Assembly: GCA_034530875.2 (NCBI GenBank)
Contig: JAVRCJ020000003.1
Span: forward strand, 224,001-288,000
Reading direction: 5' to 3'
DNA: 64,000 nucleotides
Source: Nostoc sp. DedSLP01
Lineage (GTDB): Bacteria; Cyanobacteriota; Cyanobacteriia; Cyanobacteriales; Nostocaceae
Positions within the stretch are counted from its first letter, which is position 1; each line of letters starts with the position of its first letter. The notes below the pieces were generated by a model. It was not told where the DNA came from and made no database searches. It saw nothing but the letters and a program-made list of their open reading frames with translations. The translations under genes were made by a program, and so were the position numbers. Positions 11,451-24,083 of the stretch are shown piece by piece.

Positions 11451-11867
11451 GTGTCTGCTAAAGATGCTTTTCATGCACTTGTCAAAACAGCACTTGAGAA
11501 AGATGGCTGGTTAATCACTCACGATCCTTATGCGTTACAGGCGGGAACCCTTGAACTATATATTGATTTAGGAGCAGAAAAAGTTATTGCAGCCGAAAGA
11601 CAAGGACAAAAAATAGCTGTTGAAATTAAAAGTTTTTTGAGTCCTTCAAAAATCACAGAGCTTTATGCTGCATTAGGACAATTTATTATTTACCGAATTG
11701 CTTTACTAGAGCAAGAAGCCAGTCGCACTTTATATTTAGCAGTTCCTAGTACTGTTTATAATGAGTTTTTTATTCTTCCATTTATCCAATCTGTTATTAA
11801 AAGTAATCAACTCTGTTTACTAATTTATAATATTGAACAGGAGGCAATAGAAGAATGGCAAAGCTAG
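11451..11867 (+). CDS. xisH: XisH family protein
   Basis: AKDAFHALVKTALEKDGWLITHDP, DLGAEKVIAAE, KIAVEIKSF, ALGQF. Confidence 0.93.
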   Translation: MSAKDAFHALVKTALEKDGWLITHDPYALQAGTLELYIDLGAEKVIAAERQGQKIAVEIKSFLSPSKITELYAALGQFIIYRIALLEQEASRTLYLAVPSTVYNEFFILPFIQSVIKSNQLCLLIYNIEQEAIEEWQS

Positions 11868-12187
11868 ACAAATATCGACAATATATTAAAAATTTACTTC
11901 AACAACACGCGAATATTGTTTGGGATAATCGCATTCAAGCCCAGACAATTTTTGATACAGAACACGACCATTATCAACTAGTTTATGTAGGTTGGCGTAA
12001 TCAAAACCGTATCTACGGGCCTGTTCTACATCTAGATATTATTGACGAAAAAATCTGGATTCAGCAGGATGGTACAGAGGTAGGAATTGCTAATGAATTG
12101 GTTGAACTAGGTGTCCCCAAAGAGGATATCGTTTTAGGTTTTCAGTTACCATCTGTACGTAAGTATACAGATTTTGCTGTTAGTTAA
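11855..12187 (+). CDS. xisI: XisI family protein
   Basis: FDTEHDHYQL, LHLDIIDEKIWIQQDGTEVGIANEL, GVPKEDIVLGF. Confidence 0.93.
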   Translation: MAKLDKYRQYIKNLLQQHANIVWDNRIQAQTIFDTEHDHYQLVYVGWRNQNRIYGPVLHLDIIDEKIWIQQDGTEVGIANELVELGVPKEDIVLGFQLPSVRKYTDFAVS

Positions 12188-12221: not shown

Positions 12222-12419
12222 TTAAGGTTTATTACAAAGCGGACAAGCTAGCCATAAATTTGATTCATCATTACTACCGCCTTTAGATATAGGAATGATG
12301 TGTTCAATTTCCAAACGCGCCATTACCAAACCTTGAGGACTCAAGCAATAGCCACAGCAGTTTCGAGCAGCAGTGCGGACACGACGTTCTGTTTCCACAG
12401 GAATGTAAAAGCGAGCCAT
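12222..12419 (-). pseudogene. Truncated HNH endonuclease
   Basis: CGYC...EIEHIIPISKGG...NLWLACPLCN; stops two codons after the second CxxC-N. Confidence 0.7.
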
Positions 12420-12496
12420 TGCTTTAATTAAGAGGAGATATTAAGCCACGTTATTTCCAACTTAAAAATCTGTTAAGCATCATAGGTAATTCTTAT

Positions 12497-12892
12497 CTAA
12501 ATCAAAGGCTTTTTAACTTCGCACTGCGTTAACTCCTTGGCTCTTTTGGCAAACTTTTCATCAAATGTATAAAACTCAGAACACTGCTGACTTAAAGCTA
12601 GATGAAAAGCATCAGCAAAATCTAAGCCATTTTCATACCACTGGATGACTTGAAAAATTAAACTAGGATTAGTCAGGTAAATATTAGGTAAACCAAAAAG
12701 GTTTCTCAAAGCTGTACATACGTCATCTAATTTAAATTTGTATGCAAACCTTAACACCCATTCAGTTTCAAGTATTACCGTATCTGCAATAAAAATATCT
12801 TGAGACTGGAAAATTTCTCTACTCTTTTGAAACTGTAATTCATCATCTTGAGTCAAAAATCTAACAATTATATTTGTATCAACTCCAATCAT
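12497..12892 (-). CDS. vapC: VapC-type PIN-domain toxin
   Basis: IGVDTNIIVR, ETEWVL, DFADAFHL, FYTFD. Confidence 0.9.
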   Translation of the reverse strand: MIGVDTNIIVRFLTQDDELQFQKSREIFQSQDIFIADTVILETEWVLRFAYKFKLDDVCTALRNLFGLPNIYLTNPSLIFQVIQWYENGLDFADAFHLALSQQCSEFYTFDEKFAKRAKELTQCEVKKPLI

Positions 12893-13142
12893 TCCATGAT
12901 TCCTCTACACCTTGGCGAATTGCATTATCCATATCCTCAATAGTTTTAGCTTTTCCCTGATATTTTAAACACCCTGCCACATCATCTAATTTAGTTTCTG
13001 GAAAAGGTTTCTTAGGCTTTAAAAGAATTCCATCACCCATATCAATAATAATAAATTCTTGACCTACTTTCCATTGATGAGCTTCCCGCAAAGACTGGGG
13101 AATAATCACTTGTCCTTGAGGAGACAATTTTGTAATTTCCAT
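12879..13142 (-). CDS. AbrB/MazE-family antitoxin
   Basis: TKLSPQGQVIIPQSLRE swapped-hairpin motif; overlaps toxin start. Confidence 0.88.
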   Translation of the reverse strand: MEITKLSPQGQVIIPQSLREAHQWKVGQEFIIIDMGDGILLKPKKPFPETKLDDVAGCLKYQGKAKTIEDMDNAIRQGVEESWNDWS

Positions 13143-17353: not shown

Positions 17354-18064
17354 ATGCAAGTTAAATTAGGATTCGGAGCTATTCCAAAACCTCAATATGT
17401 CTTTGTTAGCAAAGAATTCGATCATTGCTGGTATATGCTATCTGACGATAAAAAACAAATTCCGATTCATGACAGAGCTTTGACTGGAGTGATAACAGGC
17501 ATAGAAGTTAACAAAAAGGTGGAAACTTCACACGGAGAAGCAGAAAAAACTGATTTGCATATTTTGGCAGATAAGCCTTATGTCATACGCTCAGGAAGTG
17601 AATTTTACTTCTCTAAAAGTTTATTGCTTTCACTTGAAGCCTTGACTTCTGAACAATTGGTTCATCCTCTAACTATAGCAGTCAGCCCTGGAGAGAAAAC
17701 AATTGTATTTTGTGCAATTTATAATCCAGTCACTTATCGTTCTGTCGGTGTTAGTTGGGATGGACACAGAGAAAATAACTGGCAAGCTTTAGGACAAAAG
17801 GTAAGTTTAAAAATTAACTCTCTGCAAAATTTCAACCAAGAATCAATACAAACTTCTGCTAATACAACACCATCAGAAGTTCATGCAGTTTTGATAGCTC
17901 AAACTGACAGATATTTAGCACAATTAAAGTGGACTCCAGAACAAGGTAGAGAATATTTGCAGCAAAAATATGGCAAGCGATCGCGTTTACAACTCTCTGA
18001 TACAGAAATTCTCGAATTTATTGATTATCTGGAAGGAAAACTAACTCAAAACTGCCAAATTTAG
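17354..18064 (+). CDS. Hypothetical protein with a cyanobacterial C-terminal helical motif
   Basis: 236-aa ORF; C-terminal WTPEQGREYLQQKYGKRSRLQLSDTEILEFIDYLE. Confidence 0.7.
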   Translation: MQVKLGFGAIPKPQYVFVSKEFDHCWYMLSDDKKQIPIHDRALTGVITGIEVNKKVETSHGEAEKTDLHILADKPYVIRSGSEFYFSKSLLLSLEALTSEQLVHPLTIAVSPGEKTIVFCAIYNPVTYRSVGVSWDGHRENNWQALGQKVSLKINSLQNFNQESIQTSANTTPSEVHAVLIAQTDRYLAQLKWTPEQGREYLQQKYGKRSRLQLSDTEILEFIDYLEGKLTQNCQI

Positions 18065-18145
18065 CTACTGTTGTGTAAGGTTTGAATAATGGCGATCGCA
18101 CACGTACTGTAGTTGCAAAAAATACAAAATGTGCTATGACGCAGA

Positions 18146-18505
18146 TTATATATCTGATGATGCTTCAGAATCATCTAACTCAGCTAGAGCTATTTTGACA
18201 CACGCACAAACACCCTTCCAATCAAATTCTGACAAGTGACCAATCAAAACCAAATTGGCAGAGGGTGGTAGAGTGACAATGAAACTTCTGAAAATAGACG
18301 CAACTCGTAATCCTGCTGCTGCCCAATCCTGAAGTACATAGTCAGTAATTCCAAGGCTAGTTGTCTGAGTAGTCAGAAGTCCAACAATTACATCTGTACG
18401 AGTCGCATGATAAGTGGTGGATGACAGAACTACAGCTGGACGACGCTTAATACCAGTAACGCCAGGAAAATCAACTGTAACTACATCACCAGGATTAAAT
18501 GTCAC
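18146..18505 (-). CDS. PemK/MazF family toxin
   Basis: GDVVTVDFP...KRRPAVVLS, DWAAAGLRVAS. Confidence 0.88.
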   Translation of the reverse strand: MTFNPGDVVTVDFPGVTGIKRRPAVVLSSTTYHATRTDVIVGLLTTQTTSLGITDYVLQDWAAAGLRVASIFRSFIVTLPPSANLVLIGHLSEFDWKGVCACVKIALAELDDSEASSDI

Positions 18506-18729
18506 TCAACTGTCTCCTCACTTTCAGGAAAAATTGAAGCTGCGTAATGTAAAGAGAAGGATGCTAAATCAACCCGATCTTGCTCAGTCCAAGTATCACT
18601 TTGGTCGATGATAGACAAGTTTTGCTGAACTAGCTCATTTAGAATCAGGGTTGCCAAGCGTAAACGCTCAGTTGGTGACAAGTTACAAACAACTTGGCTG
18701 TATATCTCTTGGGCAGTATTGGACATCAT
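18502..18729 (-). CDS. Putative cognate antitoxin
   Basis: Small acidic ORF with GTGA overlap onto the toxin start; GGAGG RBS. Confidence 0.75.
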   Translation of the reverse strand: MMSNTAQEIYSQVVCNLSPTERLRLATLILNELVQQNLSIIDQSDTWTEQDRVDLASFSLHYAASIFPESEETVE

Positions 18730-18901
18730 AAACCCTCCTGTCCCTAATCCTAACAGGTGCGATCGCTTGTCTACTGTATTGAAATGTTAGGCTGCGGTAA
18801 TTGCGTTTGTAGAAATATTGAGTTTACTGAAGATACAAAAAATTTAGGATTTTTTACATTAATCCAATCATTGATGACAATAGCAAATTATAATTATCGA
18901 A

Positions 18902-19663
18902 TTACTTTAAGCGATCAACAATACCAAAAATATCATTAATAAGACCTAAAATAAGACCTAATCCAGTTATCAGTGTAAGTGTAACCGCTGCGTACTGAGC
19001 TAAGACACTTTGCTGTTGCTGAATTAAAACAAAAACCATAAACCCAAGAAATATAGAAACCACAAGTAGAAGTTTTATAACCTGTCCTTGCGAGCGCATA
19101 CGATTAAAACTTTCTATCGTTGTGCCAGATTCAGAGAAGTCAATATACTCATAGCAAATTATATCTTGACGTATATCATGGTACATTCTACTTAAGCCCT
19201 TTGTACGCCACTCCTTTGAGTAAACTCTATCATCAAGTTCAAAACAACAAACATGTTTTATCGCACTTGATATATAAGATGATATAATATCACTAGAAAC
19301 TTTCTTATTACATCCTGAAATATCGATAATTAAGTTATTTAAATCAGGAAAATTTCTCTTTATATTTTTGATTGAAACTTCTGGATTTACAAATAAAATT
19401 TTTATAATCCTCTCTTCTATTGGATTTAAAGATAGTAAAGATTGATATGCGATTTGATACTCATTATGAGTAATTAAAAGTTCTTCAAACTTATCTTTTA
19501 TTTTCTTAATTTGATCTTTAACTTCTGAAAGCTTACCTACAGCTCCTTCGTTGACTCCAAAGTAAACATCTCGAACACCTTTGACTTGAATACAATGTGT
19601 TAGGATATTGACGTAAAGTCCCGGATTATCGCTTTGAATGACAAGAAGTAACTGTTTCGCCAT
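18902..19663 (-). CDS. CARF-like nucleotide-sensing domain plus two C-terminal TM helices (putative Panoptes-type effector)
   Basis: N-terminal strand LLLVIQSDNPG, CARF motif-II-like LIIDISGCNKK, hydrophobic segments LLLVVSIFLGFMVFVLI and YAAVTLTLITGLGLILGLI. Confidence 0.65.
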   Translation of the reverse strand: MAKQLLLVIQSDNPGLYVNILTHCIQVKGVRDVYFGVNEGAVGKLSEVKDQIKKIKDKFEELLITHNEYQIAYQSLLSLNPIEERIIKILFVNPEVSIKNIKRNFPDLNNLIIDISGCNKKVSSDIISSYISSAIKHVCCFELDDRVYSKEWRTKGLSRMYHDIRQDIICYEYIDFSESGTTIESFNRMRSQGQVIKLLLVVSIFLGFMVFVLIQQQQSVLAQYAAVTLTLITGLGLILGLINDIFGIVDRLK

Positions 19664-20039
19664 TTGAATATTCCTGAAATATTTCAATTCGATCTTTTCC
19701 AGTAGCTTTAGCTAATTTCAATGCAAAATAAGCTTGACGTGAATTATCACCAATGCCAAAGGATAATGTCGCCTTTGAGAAGGTGGCAAACTTTATTCTT
19801 AAACTTTCTAATTGGCTTAATGATATGTCATCAGATTGCAATCTTGCAAGTAAGCTATCTCCAGCATTAAATATTATTTTTGCATTAAATTCACCTGATA
19901 GAGTTTCTGCCAACCATAACATAGCTGATTGAAAACTATGAGAAAAATTTGATAAAGACTCAATTTGATCTGTGGCAATCAAAAACTCAATTTTTCTACC
20001 AACATCGTCACCGTCTACTGCAAGATATAGATATCCCAT
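19626..20039 (-). CDS. Minimal CRISPR polymerase (mCpol) domain protein, putative cyclic oligonucleotide synthase
   Basis: 137 aa; YLAVDGDDVGRKIE, IIFNAGDSLL, TLSFGIG, AYFALKLAKATGKD: stand-alone Cas10/GGDEF-like palm. Confidence 0.85.
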   Translation of the reverse strand: MGYLYLAVDGDDVGRKIEFLIATDQIESLSNFSHSFQSAMLWLAETLSGEFNAKIIFNAGDSLLARLQSDDISLSQLESLRIKFATFSKATLSFGIGDNSRQAYFALKLAKATGKDRIEIFQEYSNGETVTSCHSKR

Positions 20040-20156
20040 AGACAATAAATATCCAACAATAATGTGGCTGTCAACAACTTCAGTAGTAACTTAATAATGT
20101 TTGAATTGATTAGAACGTTAAAAATTTTAATAATACTAGATGGCGAATTTGCTTTA

Positions 20157-20600
20157 TCAAATATCGCTTGCTTCCGGTAGCCAGTCTTCATCTAACACTA
20201 ATTCCAAAGAATATGGGCATTCTTCTGGAAACGTAGAAATTAGCATCTCTGTTTGCTTGGCTGCTTGCCTACGTGCCCTTTGATAACTTTCTTGAAGTTG
20301 CTCTTTAGGATAGTTCTTAAGACTAGGACTATCGATTATCGCTAACTCAATTTGGGTGCGAGAATCAGTGATGGAATCCAGCCAACTATCTGAACGACGC
20401 TGGGGTTGATATTGCCACTTGAGCAGATGCAATAATAAGCGAGTTAGTTGACTGGCGATAGCACGCCGTTCGCTTTTGCCCAAGCCTTCAACCTCTTCAA
20501 TCAGATGTTCTAAATCGATTTCATCCCAGCGATGCGATCGCAATAGTTGAGCTGTCTGCTCAATCCACAAATTAAAATCTGTTGTATGAGTTTCGCTCAT
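20157..20600 (-). CDS. DUF29 family protein
   Basis: DFNLWIEQTA, DLEHLIEEVEGLGKSE, LLHLLKWQYQP, FPEECPY. Confidence 0.92.
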   Translation of the reverse strand: MSETHTTDFNLWIEQTAQLLRSHRWDEIDLEHLIEEVEGLGKSERRAIASQLTRLLLHLLKWQYQPQRRSDSWLDSITDSRTQIELAIIDSPSLKNYPKEQLQESYQRARRQAAKQTEMLISTFPEECPYSLELVLDEDWLPEASDI

Positions 20601-20611
20601 AGCCCGTTACT

Positions 20612-20869
20612 TCATTTTCCAATTCGCTCAAGTTCCTCTCGTAATACTCGCCGTAATGTCTCTTCTAAAGGTTCACGGCGCTGCTGAATATACTCACGCA
20701 AAGCATCGTTAATCAAAGTTTGGTAATTTCCTCCACCTGCTGCGTGAACTTGGTCGCGAAACCATGCTAGTACTTCATCATCTAGGCGAATTGTAATTCT
20801 AGTTTTGCCTGTTGGCGTTGGTTCAATCGCTCCCCGCTTCCCCTGACTAAAATCATACTCAGCTTCCAT
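20612..20869 (-). CDS. brnA: BrnA family antitoxin
   Basis: EYDFSQGKRG, KTRITIRLDDEVLAWF, NYQTLINDALREY. Confidence 0.9.
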   Translation of the reverse strand: MEAEYDFSQGKRGAIEPTPTGKTRITIRLDDEVLAWFRDQVHAAGGGNYQTLINDALREYIQQRREPLEETLRRVLREELERIGK

Positions 20870-20872
20870 GAC

Positions 20873-21139
20873 TTATCCTTCCCCATACTGCCTTTGTTCA
20901 TAGCGTGTAGCTTGGCTAGCAGAAATTAATCGAATCTCATCATTGCGCAATGTATACACAACTACTAGGATTCGACCGAAAGCATCCATACTAATAGTAA
21001 TAAACCTCTCTTCATTAAAACGTTCATCTGTGATGGTAATTGCTAAATCATCAGAAAATATAGTTACTGCATCAGCAAAGTCAACGTTATGCTTGCGAAG
21101 ATTGGCTGCTGCTTTATCTCTATCCCACTGATACGCCAT
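20873..21139 (-). CDS. brnT: BrnT family toxin
   Basis: WDRDKAAANLRKHNVDFADA, EERF, VVVYT, IRLISA. Confidence 0.9.
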   Translation of the reverse strand: MAYQWDRDKAAANLRKHNVDFADAVTIFSDDLAITITDERFNEERFITISMDAFGRILVVVYTLRNDEIRLISASQATRYEQRQYGEG

Positions 21140-21221
21140 CTAAATCTATTGTATGCACATTTGTGCATACTAGCAGATGATGAGTACTTAACTAGTGTAT
21201 TTGTGTATGTTTTTTCTAGCT

Positions 21222-21500
21222 TCAAAAATCTTCATCATCAACAAAAAATTCGGCATCGTCTTCTAACCGAGAATTACCCTGTCTATAACCACCAAGATTC
21301 CAGAGTGGTTGCAGCAGTGCTGTGCCAATTAACCCTATAACCGCACTAAAAGCTAAAACTAAACCTGCTGGTATTTGTATTGATTGAAATGTTAAGAATT
21401 TTAACGATACTGGTGTGGCATTTTGAACTGAAATAATTGCGATCGCCATTACCCAAACAGCTACAACTACGATTGTCAATAAAGGAGCTAAAGTTTTCAT
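21222..21500 (-). CDS. LapA/DUF1049 family membrane protein
   Basis: TM-SVQNATPVSLKFL-TM architecture. Confidence 0.75.
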   Translation of the reverse strand: MKTLAPLLTIVVVAVWVMAIAIISVQNATPVSLKFLTFQSIQIPAGLVLAFSAVIGLIGTALLQPLWNLGGYRQGNSRLEDDAEFFVDDEDF

Positions 21501-21512
21501 ATCTTAATAAAA

Positions 21513-21627
21513 GTTAGGAGTTAGGAGTGAGGAGTTAGGAGTTCAGATTTTCATCAAAGTTATAAATTAAGAGTTAAGAGTTGTAAATTAACAATTCTTA
21601 ACTCTTAACTCCTAACTATTAACTCCC
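21513..21627. repeat. Inverted STRR arrays (TAGGAGT / ACTCCTA)
   Basis: gttaggagttaggag...taactcttaactcctaactattaactcc. Confidence 0.8.
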
Positions 21628-21640
21628 GATTTTGAATAAA

Positions 21641-23080
21641 TTAAACTGCTACAGTTTCTAGCTTAGCAATGGCACTTTTCATCTGTTGAGAGATTTGGGT
21701 GAGTTTTTCGGGAGAGTTGGTTTCTAGGTAAACGCGCACCAAAGGTTCTGTACCAGAAGCGCGCAGTAACACCCAGCTACCTTCTTCTAAATAGAGTTTA
21801 ATGCCGTCTTTACGCCCGACTTCTTTGACTTTAATTCTTGCTACCTCTGTGGGTGGATTTTTGGTAAAGGAGTCCATGACAGCGGTTTTGTGAGACTCAG
21901 TGAGGTGTAAGTCTAGACGGGTATTGTAAAGCGGGCCGTCGGCTTCCGCGATCGCTTCGTTAACTAACTGACTTAGGGGTTTACCTTCGTAGGCAATAGC
22001 TTCCGCCACCAGCATATCCGCTAAAACACCGTCTTTTTCCGGAATATGCCCAATTACACTTAATCCGCCTGATTCTTCACCACCAATCAGTACGGCAGTT
22101 TCCCGCATTTTTTCACCAATGTATTTAAAGCCTACTGGTGTTTCATAAATTTGCAGCCCATATTTAGCCGCGAAATTATCCAGTAGGTGCGTTGTAGCCA
22201 CAGTGCGGACTATAGCGCCGCTTTTACCTTTATTTTTGATTAAATGTCGTGCTAAAACTAACAGCACAGTATTGGGAGTGAGGACGTTTCCTTGTTCGTC
22301 AACAATACCAAAGCGATCGCTATCTCCATCTGTCGCCAAACCCAAATCTGCGCGATCCTTGACTACTGCTTCTACTAACTCAACTAATTGTTCTCCCTTG
22401 GGTTCGGGCATCCCGCCGCCAAATAATACATCTCTCCAAGTGTGGAAAGTTTCTAATTGAGCGCCGCTTTGTTGCAAAACTTCATCTAAATAACCGCGAG
22501 AAGTAGAATAGAGAGCATCGTATTTTACTTTTAAATTAGCGTTCTTAATTTTTTGTATGTCAAGCAGTGTATAGATAAATTGCAGGTAATCCGGCTTGGG
22601 ATCGAAAGTAGAAATTGAACCAGATGGATTGTTGCTAGGCAGTTCATCTGATGCACTTTTTATATTTGCCACAATAGTATCAGTAATCTCTGGAGTGGCA
22701 GGTCCAGCATAATCAGGGATATATTTAATTCCACAGTATGGTGCTGGATTATGGCTAGCAGTAAACATTAACGCCCCAGCGGAATTTAGGTGACGGGCGT
22801 TGTAGGCAATTACTGGTGTGGGACAATCCCGATCGGTAATTTTGACAGTCCAACCCAAATCTGCCAGAACTTGGGCTGCTGTACGGGCAAACTGGTCGGC
22901 TAAAAATCGAGTATCGTAAGCTATAAGTACTGGTCTATCTTTTGTATAGGCTGTTTCGAGGTAACTGGCGATCGCTCTTGTTACTTTTCGCACATTGGGG
23001 AAAGTAAAGTCATCGGCAATAATCCCTCGCCATCCATCAGTACCAAATTTTATCTTACTGGAATTGCCACTAGCGCTCAT
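21641..23080 (-). CDS. Phosphoglucomutase/phosphomannomutase family protein
   Basis: KFGTDGWRG, TASHNP, DGDSDR, GGEESGG, RASGTEP. Confidence 0.95.
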   Translation of the reverse strand: MSASGNSSKIKFGTDGWRGIIADDFTFPNVRKVTRAIASYLETAYTKDRPVLIAYDTRFLADQFARTAAQVLADLGWTVKITDRDCPTPVIAYNARHLNSAGALMFTASHNPAPYCGIKYIPDYAGPATPEITDTIVANIKSASDELPSNNPSGSISTFDPKPDYLQFIYTLLDIQKIKNANLKVKYDALYSTSRGYLDEVLQQSGAQLETFHTWRDVLFGGGMPEPKGEQLVELVEAVVKDRADLGLATDGDSDRFGIVDEQGNVLTPNTVLLVLARHLIKNKGKSGAIVRTVATTHLLDNFAAKYGLQIYETPVGFKYIGEKMRETAVLIGGEESGGLSVIGHIPEKDGVLADMLVAEAIAYEGKPLSQLVNEAIAEADGPLYNTRLDLHLTESHKTAVMDSFTKNPPTEVARIKVKEVGRKDGIKLYLEEGSWVLLRASGTEPLVRVYLETNSPEKLTQISQQMKSAIAKLETVAV

Positions 23081-23228
23081 TTTTGCCACTTGCTCCCGTA
23101 CATCATCAGTACTATTACAAGCTTCCCGCAAAGCGCGTGTAGCAGCAAGTATCCTCCGAGGTTTATGTTCGGCGGAAACTAGCGAACATATTTCTTCCCA
23201 GCGTACTTTCTCTCACTGTTTCCGAGCA

Positions 23229-24083
23229 ATGTCAACCCCCGATCGACCTTTTGCCAGTTATCACCTTTGGTCTTTAGTTGCCCCAGCGTCAGGGCAAGAA
23301 CGCTGGCATTGCCAGATGAGACGGGGGTTTATCAAAGCGCGGCAAAACGAACCACAAGTCAAAGCACTGTTAACGCAAGCTACCGCACCCCAGCGGATTG
23401 GGATACTTGCCCAAAAAGGCGTTTATGAGTTTCATAATCACAGACATCTTTTACAGCAACCGGATGGCGTAGAAAAAGTTGCACAGCTACTACAATTAGG
23501 CAACTCCAGCGATCGAGTCCGGGAACGGGTGCTGCAAATTTTGAAAAAATATCATGATGCACCGTTGCTGTTGAATAAAAATATTATTCAATTAACTCCA
23601 GGCGATGAAGGTTTTCCTAAACCGATTGTTGTCGAACAGCAAGATTCTTGCTTTCGATTATACGCGGCTATGGACTGTGTTTTTATTGAAAGCGATCGCA
23701 CTTTACATATTTTAGATTTCAAGACTGGAAAATCAGCTTTTGACAGACGACAAGCTTTAGTTTATTTATTAGCTGCTCGTTATCTCTACCCTGGTAGACA
23801 AGCTGTCGCCTCATTTTATAATCTAGAAATATCTAAAAAATCAGAGCTAATTACGATTAGCAATAGCGAATTAGAATCTTTAAAATTTGAGTTAGCTAAT
23901 ATAGCTCACAAACACCAGCACGATTTACAAAAATATCAAGAAGAAACGACTAATTTTAGTAAAATTTTCCCGCCAAATCCAGGCTCTCACTGCCGCTTTT
24001 GTCCATTTAATTCTATCTGCGAGTTTGCTGATTTTAAGCAACATCAATCGTATCCATTACCCAGTTTAAGAGTTAATACTTAA
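23229..24083 (+). CDS. PD-(D/E)XK nuclease, RecB/Cas4-like with iron-staple cysteines
   Basis: AAMD...ILDFKTG, QALVY motif, N-terminal Cys plus C-terminal CRFCPFNSIC. Confidence 0.85.
   Translation: MSTPDRPFASYHLWSLVAPASGQERWHCQMRRGFIKARQNEPQVKALLTQATAPQRIGILAQKGVYEFHNHRHLLQQPDGVEKVAQLLQLGNSSDRVRERVLQILKKYHDAPLLLNKNIIQLTPGDEGFPKPIVVEQQDSCFRLYAAMDCVFIESDRTLHILDFKTGKSAFDRRQALVYLLAARYLYPGRQAVASFYNLEISKKSELITISNSELESLKFELANIAHKHQHDLQKYQEETTNFSKIFPPNPGSHCRFCPFNSICEFADFKQHQSYPLPSLRVNT

Follow-up and report, generated by a model that had tools for sequence, protein, structure and literature searches.

Two types of Panoptes defence have been tested, and both showed repression of an effector by the product of a minimal CRISPR polymerase (mCpol) (PMC13577387, PMC12657218). 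In type I, the mCpol OptS made 2',3'-c-di-AMP and related dinucleotides, and single changes at its residue S30 shifted the products (PMC12657218). The combination of an mCpol with a CARF protein carrying transmembrane (TM) helices was named type II Panoptes and was characterised in 2026, including a cyanobacterial example (PMC13577387). The mCpols of Cylindrospermum stagnale, Sphingomonas and Ahniella (3/3) made 3'3'3'-cyclic tri-adenylate (3'3'3'-cA3, hereafter cA3) at about one per hour (PMC13577387). The tested CARF-TM effector was toxic without its cyclase or with a dead cyclase, required its membrane part and was triggered by Acb2 and Crn4, and the tested system, acting alone, restricted acb1 phages, whose escapers were mutated in acb1 (PMC13577387). 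According to its authors, direct proof of the guard role is still lacking, and they call for work in a cognate host. Operons of mCpol and CARF-TM genes account for about 40% of mCpol loci, and about half of the mCpol genomes are without SMODS enzymes (PMC12657218). Here we describe a gene pair of this kind in a 64,000-nucleotide stretch of Nostoc sp. DedSLP01 (contig JAVRCJ020000003.1, positions 224,001 to 288,000), which is called the window below. The pair is an intact member of type II Panoptes, and its branch has already been catalogued in print.

Table S3 of PMC12657218 contains entries from the window's branch, annotated mCpol->dCARF+TM+TM, such as WP_322687812.1, RCJ39701.1, OUL23447.1, WP_287453013.1 and NJN88239.1. 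Their tags or names matched relatives of the window's proteins at 61-78% identity for the mCpol and 59-78% for the effector, and WP_322687813.1, the accession adjoining WP_322687812.1, fell within the 90% cluster of the effector. These entries belong to a computational catalogue only, and the three systems studied experimentally in PMC13577387 include none of them. No experimental test of the branch was found in the literature searched, which also took in PMC12657230, PMC13712596 and the preprint 10.64898/2026.03.13.711614; supplements outside the search may bear on this. Systems of this kind, one of them cyanobacterial, have been published together with their signal and polarity, and near-identical orthologues of the pair have been catalogued. 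The sequence-only reading of the window, which had proposed a Panoptes variant with a CARF-TM effector, was right about the Panoptes identity in family and fold, but not in treating the variant as unexplored, nor in treating its ligand and polarity so, since cA3 and repression have been measured for a cyanobacterial type II member (PMC13577387). The pair belongs to a second, distant cyanobacterial branch, on which the generality of cA3 for CARF-TM Panoptes and the residues that set the ring size can be tested.

The cyclase and its CARF partner

The product of the first gene, P0001, matched Pfam PF18182 at 90.5 bits (E 1e-25; cut-off 26.4 bits) and NF033576 at 77 bits (E 2e-21; cut-off 40 bits), and its closest solved relative by sequence was OptS (phmmer, 9mnr, E 1e-14). 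The AlphaFold model had a predicted local distance difference test score (pLDDT) of 91.5, with residues 129-137 below 50, and its top Foldseek match was again OptS (9mnr, E 2e-10, TMt 0.89, root-mean-square deviation (rmsd) 1.6), which ranked well above GGDEF and Cas10 palms. No sensor domain was found in P0001 by the Pfam scan or in the model. Judged by profiles and predicted structure, P0001 is a stand-alone mCpol with a single palm fold like that of OptS, and its 137 aa lie in the length range of such proteins (about 115-140 aa). A diguanylate cyclase, which the sequence-only reading had named as the case against an mCpol, was considered and rejected because the motif was AGDSL instead of GG[DE][DE]F, no GGDEF family of Pfam or NCBIfam appeared up to E 1, and mCpol structures came first in the fold search.

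An alignment of 67 close relatives showed that the residues of the first metal-binding motif, D9-G10-D11, were invariant (67/67); a catalytic role of the first-motif aspartate has been reported (PMC12657218, PMC13577387). In the second motif, A59-G60-D61-S62, the residues G60 and D61 were also invariant, and S62, which occupied the position of Cylindrospermum D64, was Ser in 37 rows, Asn in 29 and Gly in one. The motif was GGDS in 33 rows, GGDN in 29, AGDS in four and GGDG in one, and GGDD was found in none. Since the cA3-making Cylindrospermum enzyme reads YVAGDD and OptS reads QAADG, an alanine before the G-D of P0001 is ordinary. Residue S33 aligned with OptS S30, a residue linked to adenine preference (PMC12657218); this position was Ser in 37 rows, Phe in 29 and Pro in one, and the equivalent of OptS N34 was mostly Gln.

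The second product, P0002, matched PADLOC PDLC01992 (CARF_m9--CARF_TM; the name CARF_m9 was taken from PADLOC alone) over residues 3-250 at 168 bits (E 6e-50), and no Pfam or NCBIfam family matched it above cut-off. In its model (pLDDT 84.9), a Rossmann-type domain was followed by a helical hairpin. Foldseek ranked Cad1, Csm6, Can2 and Csa3 highest (best E 5e-4), and all 12 of the best-ranked rows shown were CARF proteins. In the VIA wide structure search, the top match was Cdn1 with bound cA3 (Z 10.3, rmsd 3.5, 132 aligned), and generic helical-hairpin matches to the membrane part followed closely behind. The cA3 in this match says nothing on the ligand of P0002. Profile, hydropathy and model indicate that P0002 is a CARF protein with two C-terminal membrane helices, as the sequence-only reading had proposed. 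Helix 2 carried an in-frame tandem duplication recognised by DNA comparison with the related locus L001, and some more distant effector relatives had a similar 4-residue lengthening.

In the CARF domain, D114 was invariant and K120 nearly so among 16 family members from several branches; these two residues bound the motif that we take to be ligand-binding. The frame D-x-[ST]-x-x-x-K was found throughout CARF_m9 proteins, and in the Cylindrospermum branch the motif is DVTSVSK, not TGGxK. Because D114 and K120 were conserved across branches and the Cylindrospermum branch itself departs from TGGxK, the SGCNK of P0002 falls within normal family variation. The sequence-only reading had called AGDS and SGCNK divergent, but the idea that these motifs set the pair apart as a special variant was rejected on these alignments of relatives and on the comparison with the Cylindrospermum enzyme and OptS. 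Residue C118 within the motif was invariant in the window's branch (38/38), and the Cylindrospermum branch has Val.

Fourteen distinct related loci were compared, and in 12 of them, one cut by a contig start, the cyclase lay directly upstream of the effector; of the other two, L174 had a disrupted cyclase and L133 had no upstream DNA. In this count, L043-L047 were not added to the five of L001-L007 whose protein products they share. Left out were L008, L039 and L048, which are the window itself, and the spurious matches L134 (43 residues, E 2e-4) and L057 (35 positions). Seven of 389 family genomes, counting the source genome, and 6 of 127 genus genomes carried the window's branch; nine weak family-genome matches were not counted, eight of them belonging to other branches and one being spurious. 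The effector had no match in plasmids or in viral contigs. Pairwise ratios of nonsynonymous to synonymous substitution (dN/dS) between the window and its relatives were 0.10-0.33 for the mCpol (9/9 comparisons) and 0.10-0.17 for the effector (8/8), with 0.12 and 0.15 against the nearest relative, and both frames were whole. These ratios indicate that both genes are under purifying selection, and both frames were confirmed as real genes, not chance frames.

The mCpol gene had a G+C content of 0.331 and the effector gene one of 0.312; the genome-wide value was 0.409, and pgm, chlL, chlN and the ATPase gene had 0.44-0.47. The effector lay below the first percentile (0.314) of 3728 genome frames of at least 250 aa, and 3.1% of these frames fell under 0.335. 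The overlapping minus-strand genes, their AT-rich composition against the flanking core genes, and the motifs YLAVDGDDVG, IIFNAGDS, TLSFGIG, ALKLAKATGKD and LIIDISGCNKK were all found again as first described, and the joint finding of an mCpol next to its CARF partner in relatives agreed with the pairing. An in-frame TTG at 20045 would give an mCpol of 139 aa, and the earlier end point of the pair at 20045 is explained by this start. The long gene overlap arose where an mCpol stop that is present in other relatives at the effector start was lost, and the frame runs about 10 codons further. Among 10 compared sequences, the window included, the mCpol was 136-137 aa long in six and 126-127 aa in four, and the four shorter ones overlapped the effector by 4 or 8 nt. 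A functional role for the 38-nt overlap was rejected because the loss of the stop is confined to a single Nostoc lineage and the model gives the tail low confidence. A promoter scan gave 14 sites, compared with 10.1 +/- 3.7 in shuffled sequence, an uninformative difference.

An inactive relic, or a housekeeping signal like that of a diguanylate cyclase, appears extremely improbable as an explanation of the pair. Two recent changes, the duplication in helix 2 and the read-through tail, speak for it, as do GGDEF domains among the fold matches of P0001 (E 2e-6 and weaker, 13-17% identity); against this, mCpol structures came first, no GGDEF Pfam family matched, both frames were whole with the low dN/dS given above, and six genus genomes carry the pair.

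Table 1. Positions of the gene pair, its motifs and its surroundings, in window coordinates or protein residues
Feature	Position	Strand	Basis or detail
mCpol cyclase gene	20039-19626	minus	ATG 20039 to TAA 19626, 137 aa (P0001)
CARF-2TM effector gene	19663-18902	minus	ATG 19663 to TAA 18902, 253 aa (P0002)
Gene overlap	19626-19663	minus	38 nt
D9-G10-D11 metal-binding motif	20007-20015	minus	D9 aligns with OptS D6 and Cylindrospermum D11
A59-G60-D61-S62 hairpin	19854-19865	minus	D61 aligns with OptS D57 and Cylindrospermum D63
Read-through tail of mCpol	residues 128-137	minus	lies inside the effector gene
CARF domain	residues ~1-180 of P0002	minus	profile and fold
D114-ISGCN-K120 motif of CARF domain	19304-19324	minus	conservation over the family
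Membrane helix 1	19022-19078 (residues 196-214)	minus	hydropathy 2.87; model helix 183-215
Membrane helix 2	18938-18994 (residues 224-242)	minus	hydropathy 2.08
In-frame 12-bp tandem duplication in helix 2	18938-18961	minus	LGLI twice
Variable cassette slot (context, not part of the system)	18146-21139	minus	Pfam and relatives

The searches with Pfam, PADLOC, phmmer, Foldseek and VIA agreed on a Panoptes-type pair of mCpol and CARF-2TM proteins. Type II Panoptes was matched in the cyclase-first operon of two genes, the stand-alone mCpol with both metal aspartates, the cyanobacterial host and the CARF_m9 effector with two C-terminal helices. Differences from the Cylindrospermum system included AGDS in place of AGDD and the 10-residue tail of the window's mCpol. 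Type I Panoptes (OptS with the 2TM-beta or Cap15 protein OptE; 9mnr, 9pd0, 9nwn) was similar in its mCpol fold (TMt 0.86-0.89, 32-34% identity) and presumably in its repression logic, but its effector is 2TM-beta instead of CARF-2TM and OptS makes dinucleotides. The partner in the window matched CARF_m9 only, whereas true 2TM-beta partners of other loci matched the 2TM models of the cyclic-oligonucleotide-based anti-phage signalling system (CBASS); type I was rejected on this ground. The CARF effectors of type III CRISPR (Cam1, Csm6, Can2/Card1, Cad1, and Cdn1) shared the CARF fold, and Cam1 is also membrane-acting, with its helix at the N-terminus. These effectors are switched on by oligoadenylates made by Cas10, and no Cas10 was found in the source genome. 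In Nostocaceae, CARF-HEPN-mCpol proteins and the fused mCpol-CARF-TM proteins likewise combine an mCpol domain with a CARF partner but are single polypeptides of 440-510 aa from other clades.

At least five mCpol layouts were found in Nostocaceae (L009-L058 and L159-L164), including two CARF-TM branches, the fused mCpol-CARF-TM, CARF-HEPN-mCpol, and the 2TM-beta type I beside CBASS. In L162 (1971-3084, genome G156), a CARF-TM protein of another effector clade was the partner of a GGDN-type mCpol that belongs to the sister group of the window's cyclase, so partners may have been exchanged. L161 was a broken mCpol copy, and in L163 the mCpol had a membrane gene with two helices close by.

Signal and polarity

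A mechanism can be proposed from the tested relatives. The untriggered mCpol would slowly convert ATP to cA3. An effector dimer sitting in the cytoplasmic membrane would bind cA3 between its CARF domains and be kept off by it. A phage sponge or phosphodiesterase of the Acb2, Acb1 or Crn4 type, aimed at CBASS or type III CRISPR, would then lower cA3, the effector would rearrange, and envelope damage and growth stop would abort the infection. In the source genome the pair would act as a stand-alone trap, as no guarded system was found there. By analogy with the tested systems, a type II guard with cA3 as its signal is the probable reading, and repression logic, whatever the signal, is very likely; guarding against cyanophage immune evasion, as proposed earlier for this pair, is a putative role. 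The family and fold of both proteins, the intact metal-binding aspartates, the tight linkage with the cyclase upstream, the purifying selection, and S33 at the position of OptS S30 were observed in the pair itself and favour this reading.

Several observations weigh against it. P0001 shared 31% identity over 117 residues with the Cylindrospermum mCpol WP_015209627.1 (P0306; pairwise E 2e-19), which was no closer than its identity to the dinucleotide-making OptS (32-34%). The two mCpols fell into different clades (SH-aLRT 90-93 and 98) of a quick tree with weak deep forks. The effectors of the two branches were also in separate clades (FastTree), with about 18-23% identity over near-full-length alignments (about 21%). 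The position of Cylindrospermum D64 was Ser or Asn in the window's branch, and the equivalents of S30 and N34 were Ser or Phe and mostly Gln, with S33 kept in the window. Of the three tested enzymes, this comparison covered that of Cylindrospermum, and other members of the Cylindrospermum branch stood in for the tested effector WP_015209626.1. The absence of a found Cas10, RAMP, SMODS or CBASS cyclase to guard in the source genome, and the disrupted locus L174 described below, also count against the proposed guard. Because the branch was 31% and about 21% identical to the tested one in its two proteins and was without the second loop aspartate, cA3 is assigned to the pair indirectly.

The effectors of the two branches were nevertheless clearly homologous by sequence, as their profiles aligned with an hhalign probability of 97% (E 5e-11), and CARF_m9 scored 168 bits with the window's effector and 205-216 bits with those of the Cylindrospermum branch. 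The Cylindrospermum branch was the commoner one in Nostocaceae, with 19 of 30 loci fetched.

The same guard logic with another decoy, such as another oligoadenylate, an isomer or a mixed-base ring, would make the pair sense different phage sinks. The separate clades of both proteins, G-D-[SN] in place of G-D-D, Ser or Phe at position 33 with Gln at 37 among the base-reading positions, the effect of single S30 changes on OptS products (PMC12657218), and the invariant C118 in place of the Val of the Cylindrospermum branch point in this direction, as does genome G064, which holds both the window's branch and a fused mCpol-CARF-TM. However, all three tested enzymes, one cyanobacterial and two proteobacterial, made cA3 (PMC13577387), a single CARF_m9 model covered both branches, and the window keeps S33; another decoy is thus judged unlikely. 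The broader proposal of a distinct subtype, defined by a G-D-[S/N] cyclase and a D-I-S-G-C-N-K CARF motif and acting as a stand-alone trap with either a non-cA3 decoy or reversed polarity, is doubtful, though it deserves somewhat more weight.

Reversed polarity on its own would mean that infection switches the cyclase on and that its product turns the effector on, as in Cam1 and CBASS effectors. The closest solved CARF folds, Cad1, Csm6, Can2 and Cam1, belong to ligand-activated proteins, and in L174 the effector frame was whole beside a cyclase without D9 and D11. On the other side, both tested Panoptes types showed repression, the cyclase is without a sensor domain, and L174 was one of 14 loci and had lost its upstream region too. 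Activation therefore seems very unlikely, and repression remains the preferred polarity.

The natural breaks in the relatives appeared to point both ways on polarity. In L007 (1716-2463), the effector was frameshifted just before the membrane helices with the cyclase intact, and in L133 (142-600), where upstream DNA was missing, the effector had an internal stop. Broken effectors would be allowed by repression, and both breaks may be assembly errors. In L174 (1480-2150, genome G662), a locus of the window's branch, foreign sequence had taken the place of the upstream DNA together with the initial 14 codons of the cyclase. Under repression such a locus would be expected to harm its host, unless the promoter was lost as well or the operon is silent. 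The foreign sequence held a short direct repeat.

Viral contigs encoded mCpol-like domains in L135 (2685-8663), L136 (1081-2430) and L138 (4746-8111), on contigs of 110, 12 and 79 kb, and L137 gave a fourth, cut match. These domains lay inside large proteins (about 450-2000 aa), were 26-28% identical to P0001 and grouped together in the tree, and that of L136 kept DGDD and GGDE. One phage mCpol, a 468-aa protein of Myxococcus phage Mx1, is entered in Table S3 of PMC12657218. We would guess that a phage-made decoy could hold Panoptes effectors off. As a reporter, the Nostoc pair itself could reveal cyclic-nucleotide sinks of cyanophages.

Host genome, chromosomal slot and neighbours

The source genome (99.78% complete, 113 contigs) contained one mCpol. 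No CRISPR array was found in the 64-kb window, and none of its 66 other frames matched a cas family, except for an Argonaute-associated Cas4-like nuclease model at 22995-24083. The genome carried a type I-B cas locus with an array (C26:14906-24900) and four further arrays with the same repeat (C1, C4, and C5); an array on C64 (5501-5884) was made up of six copies of a different repeat. The description of the pair as a system without CRISPR is correct for the window but not for the genome. No Cas10 or RAMP gene was found in the source genome by searches whose controls matched, and Cas10 and RAMP proteins taken from five relatives had no match in it. No SMODS or CBASS cyclase was found either (controls matched), and 30 SMODS-bearing frames were without a match. 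PycTM was not found (control matched); searches for SAVED, DUF6602 and Cap15 gave no match, but their controls gave none as well, and these negatives are given no weight. The two ThsB_TIR matches did not come from stand-alone ThsB but from TIR domains at the N-termini of larger proteins (587 and ~890 aa). A CRISPR accessory gene or type III ancillary effector was rejected as an identity for the effector, because no cas10 or RAMP gene occurred in the locus or the genome.

Type II Panoptes tends, though not without exception, to occur in genomes with CBASS or type III CRISPR. C. stagnale has CBASS and type III CRISPR, and neither was found in the source genome (PMC13577387 for C. stagnale). In the six other carriers of the pair, Cas10 was present in five (genus baseline 70/126) and a SMODS enzyme in two (family baseline 54/389), and CBASS or type III CRISPR stood alongside the pair in 5/6 of them, unlike in the source genome, which may therefore have lost its partner system. 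A guarded system may also be unassembled in this 113-contig genome. An enrichment of the pair with type III CRISPR (5/5 other genus carriers against 70/126) was not accepted, as the carriers are too few and kin are not independent. A native chromosomal site in a host without a found guarded system bears on the guard role.

The pair lay in a variable slot bounded by a LapA-domain gene (21222-21500) and a gene at 17354-18064, together with BrnT/BrnA, DUF29, and PemK next to an antitoxin-like gene. Among the 18 genus relatives fetched, the two flanking genes were retained in 16, where the cassettes differed and were often toxin-antitoxin genes; the pair was absent from all 18. In 5 of 7 carrier genomes the pair was just behind the LapA-domain gene. 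This position amid exchangeable cassettes, with BrnT/BrnA on one side and PemK on the other, the patchy distribution (7/389 family genomes), and the lack of a found guarded system would fit another use, in which Panoptes biochemistry is kept mainly as an addiction or stress module with a small-molecule antitoxin and has little anti-phage use. However, the tested system restricted phage alone (PMC13577387), about half of the mCpol genomes are without SMODS (PMC12657218), and most other carriers have Cas10 or SMODS systems that the source genome may have lost. An addiction module is accordingly a poor candidate, and an anti-phage guard remains the preferred function.

Nearly every relative had different small cassettes in the slot (window 18064-21222; L139-L153 and L155), and an opposite-strand pair of ~323 and ~130 aa recurred. 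Short LapA-like remnants were seen in L148, L151 and L157. A 21-nt inverted repeat (90%) flanked the slot at 18080-18100 and 21438-21458, with one arm within the LapA-domain gene, and is possibly a recombination trace. Both arms contained GCGATCGC, the cyanobacterial HIP1 word. Farther out, the nuclease-like frame was a PD-(D/E)XK protein (PADLOC Aga_Cas4-like_Nuc, E 3e-126) that stood beside pgm in relatives too, and the small genes beyond chlN at 12222-13142 and 11451-12187 looked to be of toxin-antitoxin or HNH type by eye. Between pgm and the LapA-domain gene, short heptamer repeats with imperfect inverted repeats (21508-21626) resembled the STRR elements of heterocystous cyanobacteria.

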